A DNA stretch of 64,000 nucleotides from an uncultured bacterium (GTDB taxonomy: Bacteria; Zhuqueibacterota; QNDG01; DTFT01). Numbering within the stretch: the first letter of the stretch is position 1; each line of letters starts with the position of its first letter. The translations under genes were made by a program, and so were the position numbers. This document shows, piece by piece, positions 10,855-38,265 of this stretch. Below the pieces are notes generated by a model. It saw only the letters and a list, made by a program, of their open reading frames with translations. It was not told where the DNA came from and ran no database searches. Where the stretch lies: NCBI GenBank assembly GCA_963736115.1, contig CAVTNR010000012.1, positions 288,001-352,000 of the forward strand, written 5' to 3'.

Positions 10855-12002
10855 TCACTTGCGCGGCGGCACGCCCCATAGGAGTTTCCTGCGAAGCAGG
10901 TCGAAAAAATCGTGGTCCTCGAACGTGAGCCAGTGCACGGGTTCCGGAGCGCGCCGGATCACGACGACCGTGTCGTTCGGCACGTCCATGTGGATCTGCC
11001 CGTCGATGGACAGCTTCGCCGTGTTCCCTGCGGATTCCACGGACAGACGCACGGTCGACGCCCCGTCGAGCACGGTCGGCCGCGCGGACAGGGAGTGCGG
11101 GCAGATGGGAGACAGGAGGATGGATTCCAGGGTCGGCACGACAATGGGACCGGATGCGGAAAGGGAATAGGCCGTTGATCCCGTGGGCGTGGCCGCGATG
11201 AGCCCGTCCGACCGGAAGGTGTGGAAGGGCCTGCCGTCGACCTCAACCTTGATGCGGATGATACGGGGGCTTCCCCGCGGTCGATGACCACGTCGTTCAG
11301 GGCGCGGAAGACACGCCGCGTTCCGTCCGGCCCGGTACTGGTCTCGGCTCTCTCCTCCGCTTGAACCGCGGTCCGCTGCGCGGATGAAAAAGACACTTTC
11401 GCCGGGACCTCGGCTTGCGCCTCGGTTTCGGCCCCGGATTTCGTCGTGCCTTGGATCCCCGTCCGCTGCGCGGATGAAAAAGACACGTACGCGGGGGTTT
11501 CGGCCCCGGCTGAAGCCGGGAGTTGCACATTACCAAAAGCCCCGGGTTTCATTACACCTTGGACCCCCGCGTACGCGGGGGTTTCGGCCCCGGCTGAAGC
11601 CGGGGCCTCAACTTCCAGAGCCATGCGCTTTTCGATACGGTACTTCCCGGACAGGACCGCTTCCATCCTCGGCAGGAGTTCCTCGGCCGGCACTTCGGCG
11701 AGAAAACCCAGGCTTCCGAGGTTCACGCCGAACAGGGGCTTTTCCGCCCGGCCGATCAGCCGCGCGGCATTGAGCATGGTGCCGTCCCCGCCCATGGCCA
11801 CTACCAGATCGCAGGCTTCTCCGAAGGACGCCTCAGGAACGGCAAACGCGTTCGACGCGTCCGGCCGAAGCAGGCGGACCTGCTCTTCGGTGAAAGCCGC
11901 CCGGATGCCGCGGCCGTCGAGCCAGGGCAGAAAGGGATTCAGTATTTCGGCCAGCCGCGCCTTGCGCGGATTGACGAATATCCCGACCGTCTTCAGAATC
12001 AC
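10855..12002 (-). CDS. nadK: NAD kinase with ~95 aa in-frame repeat insertion (1-nt homopolymer frameshift at ~11274)
   Basis: GGDGT, GVNLGSLGFL, ALNDVV, DGLIAATPTGSTAYSLSASGP after frame correction, SPICPHSL; GTG start overlaps dxs stop. Confidence 0.92.
11361..11605. repeat. cluster of REP-like palindromic repeats inside nadK, including two identical 24-nt units (11372-11395, 11462-11485)
   Basis: CGTACGCGGGGGTTTCGGCCCCGGCTGAAGCCGGG twice; TCCGCTGCGCGGATGAAAAAGACA twice. Confidence 0.9.
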
Positions 12003-13858
12003 GGCCGCACCGCTTTCCGTATCGCCGCGGCCACGGATTCGGCATCCAGTCCGGTCTGGAGGAACAGATCCTCCAGGCATCCGTGCGGGACGAACCGGTC
12101 GGGCAGGGCGATCCGTCGCACCCAGCAGTCGGGCAGGTTCATTTCAGACAATGCCTCGGAGACGCCGCTTCCGAATCCGCCGACCCCGGTGTTGTTTTCC
12201 AGGGTGAACAGCACGGGAATGGACCGGGCCGCCTCCTCCAGCGCCTGCCGGTCGACGGGTTTGACGAACCGCGCATTGACGACACGCACCGACAGCCCGT
12301 CGCGCTCCAGACGTCCGGCCGCTTCGAGCGCGACCTGAACCATGTCGCCGACCGCGAACACGGCCGCGTCGCGGCCCTCGCGAACCGTCTCGGACCGGCC
12401 GATCGGGATTTCCGTGAATCCGGACTTTTCCGGAAGGCCGAGCGTCTCTGAGCGGGGATAGCGCACGGCGACCGGACCTGGGTGCCGTACTGCTGTGTAG
12501 AGCATGTCGCGGAATTCGTTCTCGTCCTTCGGCGCCATCACCACGAGGTTGGGGATCATACGCAGGTAAGTGAGGTCGAAGGATCCGTGATGGGTGGGCC
12601 CGTCCTCTCCGACCAGCCCGCCGCGGTCCACGGCGAACACGACCGGCAGGTTCTGAAGGGCCACGTCGTGGATGATGGAATCAACGGCACGCTGAAGAAA
12701 AGTCGAGTATATCGCCACAACCGGCCGCAGTCCCCGCCTCGCCAGCCCGGCCGCGAAGGTCACAGCATGCTGTTCGGCGATGCCGACATCGAAAAACCGG
12801 GACGGGAAGCGCACCGCGAATTCGCAGAGACCGGTTCCGTTGGCCATGGCCGCGGTAATGGCCGTAATCGATGGGTCCGACTCCGCGAGTTCGATGAGCG
12901 TCTTGCCGAACACGTCCGTGTACGATGGATTGGACCGGGGAGGAGTTTTTCCCGTATCGAGGCAGAACGAGGAAATACCGTGAAACCGCGTGGCATCCTC
13001 CTCCGCGTACTTGTAGCCCTTCCCCTTGGTCGTCATCACGTGCAGGAGGATGGGGCCGTGGAGCTTGCGGATCTCCCGGAGAATCCAGAGCAGTTCCGGC
13101 AGATCATGTCCGTCGACCGGCCCGAAGTACCGGAAGCCCAGCCGCTCGAACAAGCCGCTGGGGACGAGCAGGGCCTTGATCACCTCGTCGAGCCGTCGCA
13201 CGGAGCGGCGGAGAACACCCGACCGGTGAGTCGCATGCCACAGGACGGTCTTGACGCGGTTGTAGGCCGGCGCCGCGATGAGTTTGTTCAGGTACCGGGA
13301 CAGGGCGCCGACATTGGGCGCGATGGACATGGTGTTGTCGTTGAGCACGACAATCAGGTCGCGCTTCGCGGCGCCCGCGTTGTTCAGGCCCTCAAAGGCC
13401 AGCCCGCCCGTCATCGCGCCGTCTCCCACCACTGCGATGACGGAGTGGGATTCGCCCTTCAGGTCGCGGCCCGCGGCGAGGCCGAGCGCGGCCGAGATGG
13501 CCGTCGAGGCGTGGCCGGCGCCGAATGCGTCGTATTCGCTTTCCGTGATTTTGGGGAATCCGCTGATGCCGCCCGTCTGGCGGAGGGTGTGGAAGCGGTC
13601 CCTGCGGCCCGTGAGGATTTTGTGAATATAGGCCTGGTGCCCCACATCCCAGACGATCTTGTCCTCAGGCGCGTCGAACGCGGCGTGCAGGGCGATAGTG
13701 AGTTCGATCACGCCCAGGTTCGGCGCCAGGTGGCCGCCGGTGCGGGAGACGGATTCGGTGACGAATTCGCGCAGCTCGTCCGCGAGCCTTTGCAGGTCCG
13801 TGATGTCCAGCGATTTGAGGTCCCGGGGGGACTGGATGGTGTCGAGAATGCGGCTCAT
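11999..13858 (-). CDS. dxs: 1-deoxy-D-xylulose-5-phosphate synthase
   Basis: GGHLAPNLG, WDVGHQAY, GDGAMTGG, DVGIAEQHA, DGPTHHG; start MSRILD. Confidence 0.98.
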   Translation of the reverse strand: MSRILDTIQSPRDLKSLDITDLQRLADELREFVTESVSRTGGHLAPNLGVIELTIALHAAFDAPEDKIVWDVGHQAYIHKILTGRRDRFHTLRQTGGISGFPKITESEYDAFGAGHASTAISAALGLAAGRDLKGESHSVIAVVGDGAMTGGLAFEGLNNAGAAKRDLIVVLNDNTMSIAPNVGALSRYLNKLIAAPAYNRVKTVLWHATHRSGVLRRSVRRLDEVIKALLVPSGLFERLGFRYFGPVDGHDLPELLWILREIRKLHGPILLHVMTTKGKGYKYAEEDATRFHGISSFCLDTGKTPPRSNPSYTDVFGKTLIELAESDPSITAITAAMANGTGLCEFAVRFPSRFFDVGIAEQHAVTFAAGLARRGLRPVVAIYSTFLQRAVDSIIHDVALQNLPVVFAVDRGGLVGEDGPTHHGSFDLTYLRMIPNLVVMAPKDENEFRDMLYTAVRHPGPVAVRYPRSETLGLPEKSGFTEIPIGRSETVREGRDAAVFAVGDMVQVALEAAGRLERDGLSVRVVNARFVKPVDRQALEEAARSIPVLFTLENNTGVGGFGSGVSEALSEMNLPDCWVRRIALPDRFVPHGCLEDLFLQTGLDAESVAAAIRKAVRP

Positions 13859-36441: not shown

Positions 36442-36535
36442 GTATAACGGGCTAATCAATGGTTTTGCCTCAAATGATTTTAAAAAGCCTTATGAGATGG
36501 AACGAGGCAAAATCCATTGCATTAGCGGGTTAGAA
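36442..36535 (-). other. attC site (94 bp), first in array
   Basis: TTCTAACCCGCTAATGCAATGGATTTTGCCTC...GAGGCAAAACCATTGATTAGCCCGTTATAC with two extrahelical bases. Confidence 0.9.
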
Positions 36536-36549
36536 ACATTTTTATTATT

Positions 36550-36740
36550 GAAGCTCCCCGCCGCCCGCTTCGCGGGACCAAGCTATTATATGCCTTCTGT
36601 TTGAAGGCAAGCGGCGGGGAATCTTCTATCTGTAGAGAAGAGGCATCTTATATTCGCTCGCTTACCCCGGGGCCCGCTGCGCGGGATCAAGCTATTATAT
36701 GCCTGCTTGTTGAAGACAAGCCCCGGGGAATGCGCTCGCT
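36550..36740. repeat. REP-like palindrome doublet, each hairpin carrying a 44-nt insertion (36564-36607, 36673-36716)
   Basis: Empty sites TCCCCGCCGC-AA-GCGGCGGGGA and CCCCGGGGC-AA-GCCCCGGGG; inserts 38/44 identical. Confidence 0.85.
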
Positions 36741-36899
36741 GTCAGATTCACATTCATCGACAATGATTTCCACTGTTTTAAACCGCTTGTTATTCTCATT
36801 GTCGATGCAGTACCGCAGGCAGACGAAACGGTCACCGTAAAATTCCATCCACTTCTTCGAGCCGGGCCGCCCCGGCGGTACCCTTTTGACAATATGCAT
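36687..36899 (-). pseudogene. small hypothetical protein downstream of intI, probably truncated at the palindrome doublet
   Basis: PGRPGSKKW..FYGDRFVCLRY...KRFKTVEIIVDE resembles (from memory) a family found beside integron integrases; reads into repeat DNA after ~50 aa. Confidence 0.55.
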
Positions 36900-36973: not shown

Positions 36974-37948
36974 CTATAAATCGTACGCTGGGCTTTTCAC
37001 CCCCAGGCCCCCGCGGTTCAGAACGTGCGTATAAATCTGCGTTGTGGCCACGTTCTCGTGGCCGAGCAGTTCCTGAACCGTCCGGATGTCGCTGCCCCGC
37101 ATCAGAAGGTGCGTCGCGAACGAATGGCGCAGGCTGTGGGGGCCGGCATGCTTCAGTATGCCGGCGCCGCGGATCGCCTGCTTCACGGCCCTTTGAAGAA
37201 CGGTCCCGTCCAGATGATGCCTTCACCTGATCCCGCTTCGCGGATCGATTGAAATCTGCCGCGCGGGAAAAACATACTGCCACGCGAATTCCTTCGAGGC
37301 ATTTGGATATTTGCGTTCAAGGGCGTACGGCATATAAACCGATCCGGTTCCTTCCATTAAATCCTTTTCATGAAGGTTCTTCACTTTCACCAAATGATCC
37401 TTGAGAGGGGCTGCCAGTCTCTCGGGAAGCATGGTGACCCTGTCCTTGAACCCTTTTCCGTCATGAACGGTGATCTGGCGATAGTCAAAATCGATGTCCT
37501 TCACCCTGAGCCGCAGGCATTCCATCAACCGCAATCCGGAACCATACAGGAGCATGGCCAGGATCCAGGCTGTGCCTTTCAATCGACTCATGACCGCCTT
37601 GATTTCGGCGGGCGAGAAGACGACCGGCAGCTTCCTGGGCTTTTCGGCCCATATCAGCTCCAGGTCCCCGATCTTCTTTTCAGAACGTGTTTGTAGAGGA
37701 AAATGACCGCGCAAAGCGCCTGATTCTGGGTCGAGGCTGAAACGTTCCGGCGCACGGCCAGGTGTTTCAGAAATTCGTTGATCTGGTGTTCCCCCAGGTC
37801 CGAGGGATCCCGGTTTTCGTGAAACCTGACGAAGCCGGCCGCCCATCCGAGATAGGCGGTCTCCGTCCTCAGGCTGTAATGCATGGCCCTCAGCACGGCC
37901 CGCATCTCGCCCATCCAGAGGGGGATTTCCGGGGATTGAACGTCCATA
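36974..37948 (-). pseudogene. intI: integron integrase (frameshift ~37680, in-frame TGA at 37223-37225)
   Basis: [30 protein letters not shown], IntI patch [49 protein letters not shown]. Confidence 0.95.
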
Positions 37949-38265
37949 CGGAAGTGTCTCCGCTTTTTTCCGCGAAGCAGCCCCCGATGCGCCGTTGATC
38001 CTGCCTGCCCGACCCGCCACGGTATCTCCTGAATACGAATGCACGGATGCGTTCGGACGGGAATGAACAAAATTTTCGATTATTTTATCGACTCAAAAGC
38101 GTGCATGCCTGCCTGAAAAAGGCGGGTGAAATTCCCCGTCTGACGGCGCCCGGCTGCGCCGCTGTCCGTTAGGAATGATTGAATAAACTCCCTGACATCG
38201 AACGGCATGAATCCCTCCCGTTGCGAGCCTGAGGATGGAAAACCCGGAGATTAATTAGTTGTCTT

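Follow-up and report, generated by a model that had tools for sequence, protein, structure and literature searches.

Gene-less units of 44-46 nt occupy hairpin sites of other palindromic repeats in an uncultured Zhuqueibacterota lineage

Introduction

Insertion sequences of the IS200/IS605 family transpose by a "peel and paste" mechanism. IS1397 and ISPpu9 are full insertion sequences with transposase genes, belonging to the IS3 or IS110 families. Mosaic repeats are another kind of small bacterial element: the pneumococcal BOX repeat holds a 45-nt boxB repeated 0-8 times, and ERIC and Correia repeats occur in long and short forms.

According to the sources cited here, IS1397 and ISPpu9 target REP hairpins (PMC1525189, PMC12288879), and REP/REPIN elements are handled by RAYT (TnpA-REP) Y1 HUH enzymes (PMC3116915, PMC3333891, PMC8266576, PMC6006769), whose genes are described as typically single-copy (PMC5581495). 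For IS200/IS605 and at least one RAYT, the cut site is reported to be set by complementarity to a guide at the foot of a hairpin, and in a Marinomonas RAYT two guide bases select a dinucleotide (PMC8266576, PMC6006769). Cleavage and strand transfer are what the cited parts of the RAYT enzyme work show; they do not extend to natural integration sites (PMC8266576). The spread of REPs and similar hairpin repeats, and their choice of landing sites, are still poorly understood. In the full-text literature (supplementary REP catalogues aside) we found no gene-less block of about 45 nt described as nested in REP hairpins.

Here we analyze a window of 64,000 nt (C12:288001-352000) from an uncultured bacterium whose genome assembly (G000) comprises 3.34 Mb in 31 contigs, with 60% G+C and 87% completeness. 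A first-pass annotation of the window had reported 44-nt inserts in both hairpins of a palindrome doublet and proposed a structure-targeted micro-transposon, with a duplicated three-way-junction motif as the alternative. Below we compare this locus with its paralogues, with related genomes, and with the systems above.

Results

Two units interrupt one palindrome doublet

The host element, H1, is a two-hairpin repeat without terminal inverted repeats at window positions 36550-36745 of the forward strand, and it is bordered by ATT on the left (36547-36549) and on the right (36746-36748). Sequence reading and folding place the 5' arms of its hairpins at 36555-36563 and 36665-36672. The CAAG loops with their 3' arms, at 36608-36620 and 36717-36728, are in addition supported by matches to the joined flanks, and the linker from hairpin 1 to hairpin 2 (36621-36664) was delimited by sequence reading and comparison with other copies. 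Each GC-rich palindrome is interrupted, one base short of the end of its 5' arm, by a 44-nt unit in the same orientation as these features: unit 1 at 36564-36607 (nhmmer E = 2.0e-13) and unit 2 at 36673-36716 (nhmmer E = 7.8e-14).

By direct reading the two units agree at 38 of 44 positions and differ at the other 6, despite their dissimilar host arms, and each opens with a 13-nt mini-hairpin of a 5-bp stem and a 3-nt loop (36564-36576 and 36673-36685), both as first reported. In unit 1, Y15 is the C at 36578, C16 lies at 36579, G43 at 36606, and R44 is the G at 36607; unit 2 shows a compensatory double change, with T at 36687 for Y15 and A at 36716 for R44. The junction is ambiguous by one C at both hairpins (G^C or GC^), again in line with the earlier reading. 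Folded as single-stranded DNA, the filled hairpins form three-way junctions (z = -5.0 and -4.0). Across the window the mini-hairpin motif, allowing at most one mismatch, was observed 9 times against 2.74 ± 1.73 expected, a count reached in 0 of 100 shuffles.

The first-pass annotation had held that removing 36564-36607 and 36673-36716 would restore two palindromes. These palindromes are real rather than hypothetical, as the doublet is present without inserts in this genome and at locus L029, in another genus and family of the order. The L029 doublet consists of exactly the two palindromes predicted, and a fully empty doublet lies near C27:116633-116750 of G000. The joined flanks of unit 1 match C28:94728-94776 (98% over 49 nt) and those of unit 2 match C28:106696-106755 (98.3% over 60 nt).

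Other features surround the doublet. A separate 9-bp inverted repeat (TTTTGCCTC ... GAGGCAAAA) occupies window positions 36462-36512, between the doublet and the start of a gene for a metallo-beta-lactamase-fold protein. To the right, a small ORF is shorter than in the related genomes G001 and G002, where the frame continues, and beside it PF00589 (tyrosine recombinase) matches in part, over profile positions 23-86 of 172; these two features involve window positions 36687-36899 and 37223-38044 (minus strand). The contigs of G001 and G002 both stop at one common sequence there (loci L025 and L026). The window doublet abuts a decayed mobile region.

A conserved family of units

An nhmmer profile of the 45-nt unit gave 197 matches at E<1 in the 3.34-Mb genome, 156 of them at E<1e-3 and 107 full length; the exact mini-hairpin motif matched 100 times. 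The first-pass annotation had named three outcomes that would speak against it (no further copies, copies apart from host hairpins, or no empty form of the doublet anywhere), and none of these was observed: copies are many, nearly all lie at hairpins, and empty sites exist. The units are 44-46 nt long. In the consensus, a GC hairpin (positions 1-13) is followed by A14, Y15, C16 and AAGC, so that AYCAAGC follows the hairpin, then by a variable AT-rich stretch of about 15-20 nt and by TTGAAG-R44-C45, the unit itself ending in TTGAAGR. A promoter in the AT-rich part was considered and dropped by eye, the hexamer spacing being too short.

Among 44 distinct units from several genomes, 89.5% of the hairpin cells are paired, and the hairpin is kept by compensatory changes, for example CCCGC/GCGGG to CCGGC/GCCGG. 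The 5' hairpin is always present, whereas a 3' hairpin is confined to one subfamily, which includes unit 1. Similar units (at least 93% identical) formed 159 pairs, in which the flanks were both unrelated in 12, unrelated on one side in 86 and related on both sides in 61. Close neighbors are often convergent (24 of 55), and in the pairs compared the two units belong to different subfamilies. Searches of Rfam with the window, 40 variant loci, the host doublet and the hosts of other genera returned no family for the unit or its hosts; elsewhere they gave only chance-level matches and an RNase P fragment.

Three truncated units were also seen in this genome (C3:123408, C30:30287 and C12:265686). 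In two of them the mini-hairpin alone stands between the host arms, and the third stops after some 32 nt; either decay or imprecise events gave rise to them.

Filled and empty sites differ by one precise block

Of 131 full-length units, 92 have joined flanks that match an uninterrupted paralogue across the junction (BLAST within G000). In 77 of 88 filled/empty pairs of at least 90% identity, one block of 44-46 nt made up the difference: 22 pairs differed by 44 nt, 41 by 45 nt and 14 by 46 nt. A single block of 41-50 nt accounted for 85 of the pairs. Microhomology at the junction amounted to 0 nt in 20 pairs, 1 nt in 32 and 2 nt in 16; with 68 of the 88 pairs at 0-2 nt, there is no target duplication. 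The inserted block runs from the hairpin, in some cases preceded by an additional pyrimidine, through TTGAAGR, and under that framing the 3' flank begins with C. R44 is the last or last-but-one base of the block.

At G^CAAG sites, the first hairpin of H1 was filled in 31 and empty in 19 copies (n=57), and the second was filled in 20 and empty in 14 (n=44). A second doublet family showed 8 filled and 7 empty at one hairpin (n=17) and 5 filled and 7 empty at the other (n=17). Among 29 doublets scorable at both hairpins, 6 were empty at both, 7 filled at the second only, 4 at the first only and 12 at both, with no association (Fisher p = 0.27); the two hairpins of the doublet are filled independently. 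End to end, the H1 copies of this genome form a ladder of about 112, 156, 201, 246 and 288 nt, corresponding to 0-4 units with a step of about 45 nt.

The first-pass annotation had called for a search for empty-site orthologues. Neither the genomes of the genus nor the sediment runs and the JGI metagenome contigs yielded a filled/empty pair of orthologues differing by a single unit, and no sequence of the same species came to light in those runs and contigs. Between species of the genus, intergenic DNA does not align, and the single-unit comparisons are therefore all between paralogues. An apparent 44-46 nt length difference within the genus, at C12:418741, turned out to be such unalignable DNA. 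At the window locus, the left side is not syntenic in G001 and G002, whose contigs both end there. Three sediment DNA runs cover only small shares of the window region. Contigs from these runs include a joint from which exactly 36673-36716 is missing, but its shorter side spans only 22-34 nt; such joints come from paralogues or relatives and not from the same locus. A query of JGI metagenome contigs with the neighboring metallo-beta-lactamase-fold protein found only a relative of 29% identity.

Unrelated hosts and at least three placement modes

Besides H1, the hosts in G000 comprise the second doublet family, a nested-hairpin repeat, REPs that flank RAYT genes, and the hairpins of other units. 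Units sit in the REPs flanking the RAYT genes on contigs C2 and C19, two of the three RAYT genes in this genome. In four other genera, the unit lies in an unrelated AT-rich palindromic repeat, directly after the first hairpin of that repeat, and filled and empty copies within one genome differ by an exact 45-nt block. Occupancy of this host was 16 filled and 9 empty in G026 (n=25), 4 and 7 in G023 (n=11), 2 and 3 in G028 (n=5), and 0 and 4 in G005 (n=4). In G026 (L037-L043) and its relatives, long GC-rich palindromes of the GCCTGCCCGCC..GGCGGGCAGGC type come after the AT-rich host palindrome, and the two make up a further composite repeat family, present in many near-identical copies.

The rule proposed at first, insertion between the last G and C of the 5' arm, holds for the window pair and is one of at least three placement modes. 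In that mode the unit lies within the 5' arm, one base before the loop (G^C), on either host strand; in the second it stands at a hairpin's 5' foot and mostly runs opposite to the host; and in the third, seen in one REP class, it follows the loop. The 5' flanks end in ..CCG, ..GGG, ..GAAC, ..TTC, ..CCT and others, and the framing chosen leaves a single flanking position constant, the C that opens the 3' flank. Relative to GC skew in 25-kb windows, the units show no bias of orientation overall (68 units on the G-rich strand and 74 on the other), GC skew being only a proxy for replication direction in an assembly of 31 contigs. Per placement mode, the corresponding counts are 20/47 and 35/14, and these opposite biases of the two main modes follow from the orientation of the host elements.

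The host doublet is itself mobile

In the related genome G002, a whole H1 with three units is inserted at L101:1072-1442 (contig C163). The empty counterpart of this site is contiguous, and apparently coding, in G003 (L100:1282-1482, contig C57) and in G001 (L099:3117-3317, contig C19). ATT stands on both sides of the G002 insertion, and a single ATT is found in the empty site; H1 copies in G000 likewise have, as a rule, ATT at their left border and ATTC at their right. The insertion in G002 against the contiguous sequence in G001 and G003 indicates that the host doublet itself moves, and its units ride along when it does. H1 resembles a transposase-less IS200/IS605 derivative or a REPIN. A search of G000 for a gene-bearing H1 or a full-length insertion sequence with H1 ends found neither, with one pair of ends 4078 nt apart, and among the RAYT loci sampled none is flanked by the host doublet.

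Two positions of the unit covary

Across 141 units, Y15 and R44 combine as C-G in 93, T-A in 42, T-G in 3, C-A in 2 and T-T in 1 (Fisher p = 1e-29). Their mutual information (0.66) is the highest of all column pairs in 118 full-length units. The neighboring pair C16:G43 is invariant. In the 44 distinct units from several genomes, Y15:R44 was paired without exception (25 CG, 18 UA and 1 UG), and among 453 pattern matches in 11 unit-bearing genomes 14 read T..G and 5 C..A, some of these exceptions being chance matches. By analogy, the Y15/R44 pairing recalls the pairing of guide and cleavage site in HUH Y1 enzymes, the scale and the logic being alike.

Distribution across genomes

A gapped unit pattern was counted on both strands, with a reversed-pattern control giving 0-2 matches. 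The four genomes of the genus held 140 (G000), 103 (G001), 81 (G002) and 65 (G003). Seven further genomes of the order held 21, 16, 6, 6, 5, 5 and 5, and the remaining 20 held 0-3. The unit family thus reaches high numbers in the genus and lower ones elsewhere in the order. In 136 genomes of the phylum outside the order there was no enrichment (maximum 4, with 2 in the control of that genome); these include the unpublished G158 and G162, on which the null result does not depend. The genome of locus L029 (G017) has many empty doublets and only 2 pattern matches, and host doublet and unit are decoupled across genomes.

RAYT genes and the search for an enzyme

RAYT genes were found at E<=1e-5 in 30 of 31 genomes of the order, in 26 of which they pass the family cut-off. 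They are unusually numerous here, at about 250 matches across the order and as many as 17 in a single genome; G000 has 3 (C19:57396-57962, C2:71373-71945 and C17:75009-75827). A transposase flanked by the hairpin, which the first-pass annotation suggested looking for, was absent from the 32 distinct RAYT loci sampled among the approximately 250 matches. At one of these 32 a full unit does lie within about 1.5 kb, where it occupies the REP belonging to that RAYT.

No close orthologue of any resident RAYT turned up in unit-bearing genera other than this one: the C19 protein is found within the genus only (72-75% identity), that on C2 in G001 only, and that on C17 nowhere else. A RAYT lineage common to all unit-bearing genomes was sought with these three proteins as queries and did not emerge. 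The C19 RAYT is the only resident one common to all four genomes of the genus, and the tip of its REP resembles the unit hairpin, making it a weak lead for the enzyme of the unit. G000 has no TnpB-type domain (PF07282) and, for the classical IS200 transposase, nothing above its cut-off. As this genome is 87% complete, a gene missing from the assembly is possible either way.

Discussion

The unit shares features with REP/REPIN elements, being a short, high-copy, gene-less hairpin repeat whose hairpin is kept by compensatory changes; a short motif next to the hairpin foot may, as in those systems, be complementary to a cut site. The same genome encodes RAYTs accompanied by their own REPs, and repeats occur within genes, as in nadK; the intergenic location of the unit was checked at the window locus. 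Unlike REPs, the unit has no GTAG or CGTC tag, reading TTGRT at the tag position while the RAYT-flanking REPs of this genome do carry GTAG, and no RAYT gene in the sample is flanked by inverted copies of it. Where a REP is a plain palindrome, the unit adds to its hairpin a 30-nt tail whose 3' end is conserved, and it is nested within other REPs with clean empty sites. Unlike the arms of a REPIN, the convergent units compared combine different subfamilies.

Like IS200/IS605 elements and their transposase-less derivatives (PATEs), the unit lacks terminal inverted repeats and target duplication, has precise ends and a subterminal hairpin, and pairs its terminal bases with bases beside that hairpin. 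It differs from them in having one obligatory hairpin rather than two, a length of 45 nt rather than hundreds, no fixed 4-5 nt target at the 5' side, a varying placement and no strand bias relative to GC skew. The putative guide moreover lies on the other side of the hairpin, 3' of it on the strand whose paired bases end the unit, whereas in known HUH Y1 systems it is 5'. The unit homes to repeated palindromes like IS1397 and ISPpu9, but is gene-less and 45 nt long. Like BOX, ERIC and Correia repeats, its hosts are mosaics whose length varies by a discrete internal block; in those repeats the block stays within one element family, whereas the unit occurs in several unrelated hosts and several genera. 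A MITE was rejected, since the ends CCCGC.. and ..TTGAAGR are not inverted repeats and there is no target duplication. An integron attC site was likewise rejected, with no unit match between C12:98552 and C12:180318, the span of the cassette array on this contig. Without GTAG or a flanked RAYT, with one hairpin and no fixed target, and with neither terminal inverted repeats nor duplication, the unit is assigned to none of REP, PATE or MITE.

It is well supported that the unit comes and goes precisely, without target duplication, at the hairpins of other repeats. The blocks in the window are very probably copies of a discrete insertion module that entered unrelated hairpin sites. The micro-transposon first proposed is partly supported: a discrete, gene-less family at hairpin sites with empty counterparts is borne out, and the searches found neither a transposase flanked by units among the sampled RAYT loci nor an orthologous pair for a single unit. 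Taken whole, the best explanation is a gene-less module of 44-46 nt that uses hairpin-junction sites and is handled in trans by an HUH Y1 enzyme, to which we assign a probability of about 0.5. Under this scenario, a hairpin-binding enzyme of the RAYT or IS200/IS605 kind would bind the 5' hairpin of the unit and handle it as single-stranded DNA. The 3' cut would be located via pairing of Y15 and C16, beside the hairpin, with G43 and R44 at the unit end, and the strand would be rejoined at exposed hairpin junctions, either stem/loop or stem/foot, of other hairpin-forming repeats. That a RAYT-like HUH enzyme moves the unit as single-stranded DNA by means of the Y15/R44 pairing is close to an even bet, perhaps slightly less. 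Much of the copy number probably comes from units riding along as host elements multiply.

A bolder form of this reading, which we put forward tentatively, is that the unit may be a self-contained single-stranded DNA transposon of about 45 nt with its own hairpin, two-base guide and cut site. Homing to stem junctions in other hairpin elements, it would be a hyperparasite of REP- and PATE-like repeats that borrows a RAYT-type enzyme in trans. If so, it would be among the smallest mobile elements known and would offer a natural system in which hundreds of filled and empty sites reveal both how RAYT enzymes choose their targets and what guide rule they follow.

A different possibility is that the unit is a functional module rather than a transposon, acting either as a structured segment of RNA or as a site on DNA at which an architectural protein binds. 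It would be selected at the tips of hairpin repeats and spread passively with its hosts and by recombination or gene conversion. Several observations fit such a module: filled sites retain the outer host stem and fold into a three-way junction; the unit subfamilies correlate with host class; and key positions are conserved across genera, although intergenic DNA is otherwise unalignable even within the genus. As H1 moves whole with its units, much of the spread needs no mobility of the unit itself. The stretch ATCAAGCTATTA resembles the IHF core consensus, a putative likeness that we count on this side. Against the module, two thirds of the copies read ACCAA rather than ATCAA. Recombination between homologous repeats, moreover, does not explain identical boundaries in non-homologous hosts. 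For an RNA fold, a long-range pairing of only 2 bp besides the hairpin is weak, the window and 40 variant loci gave no Rfam match, and the public reads list no RNA run covering the region. We consider a functional module of this kind unlikely.

Alternatively, the unit could be a mobile insertion moved by other means than an HUH Y1 enzyme, such as polymerase template switching at extruded hairpins or an unrecognized recombinase. No HUH gene is linked to the unit, and its sites are structural, being hairpin junctions with no fixed sequence. The 3' flank often resembles part of the unit (CAAG, or an arm like CCCGC), and in G025 a different insert of about 20 nt is found at the same place in hairpin 1 of an H1-type doublet. 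Against such a mover, the boundaries are constant within a base or two in unrelated hosts, with microhomology of mostly 0-2 nt; the Y15:R44 covariation would have no role in simple template switching; and HUH Y1 genes are unusually abundant in this order. We regard this route as improbable too.

A fixed, duplicated three-way-junction motif with compensatory changes in its closing stem and no insertion history, the alternative offered with the first-pass annotation, does accord with closing stems that differ compensatorily and with the fold of both filled hairpins, but it is contradicted by the empty doublets in G000 and other genera and by the unit in unrelated hosts, and the ladder of 0-4 units together with the independent occupancy of the hairpins excludes it.

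The unit family provides clean filled and empty sites, spread over several unrelated hosts and genera, along with the 0-4 occupancy ladder, and its two-base covariation can be tested directly by compensatory mutation. Small hairpin repeats can evidently be layered, since the two-hairpin element that contains the units moves as well. In terms of annotation, the family explains a large share of the intergenic repeat structure in this uncultured lineage.

The different insert in G025 lies at L033:77-115 (contig C267), and the hairpin 1 site of the host doublet may accept other small inserts.

Two 24-nt pieces within nadK (window positions 11372-11395 and 11462-11485) had been grouped with the window units. 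They share the mini-hairpin, but the unit profile finds neither of them (no match at E<1), and by eye only the second lies in a clean palindrome. The nadK-like ORF on the minus strand (10959-12080) contains an extra segment of about 90 residues made of palindromic repeats (window 11290-11560), in which the 24-nt hairpin piece occurs twice, translated as VSFSSAQRT. This ORF also seems to run on in another frame (10855-11139), a possible frameshift or assembly error.
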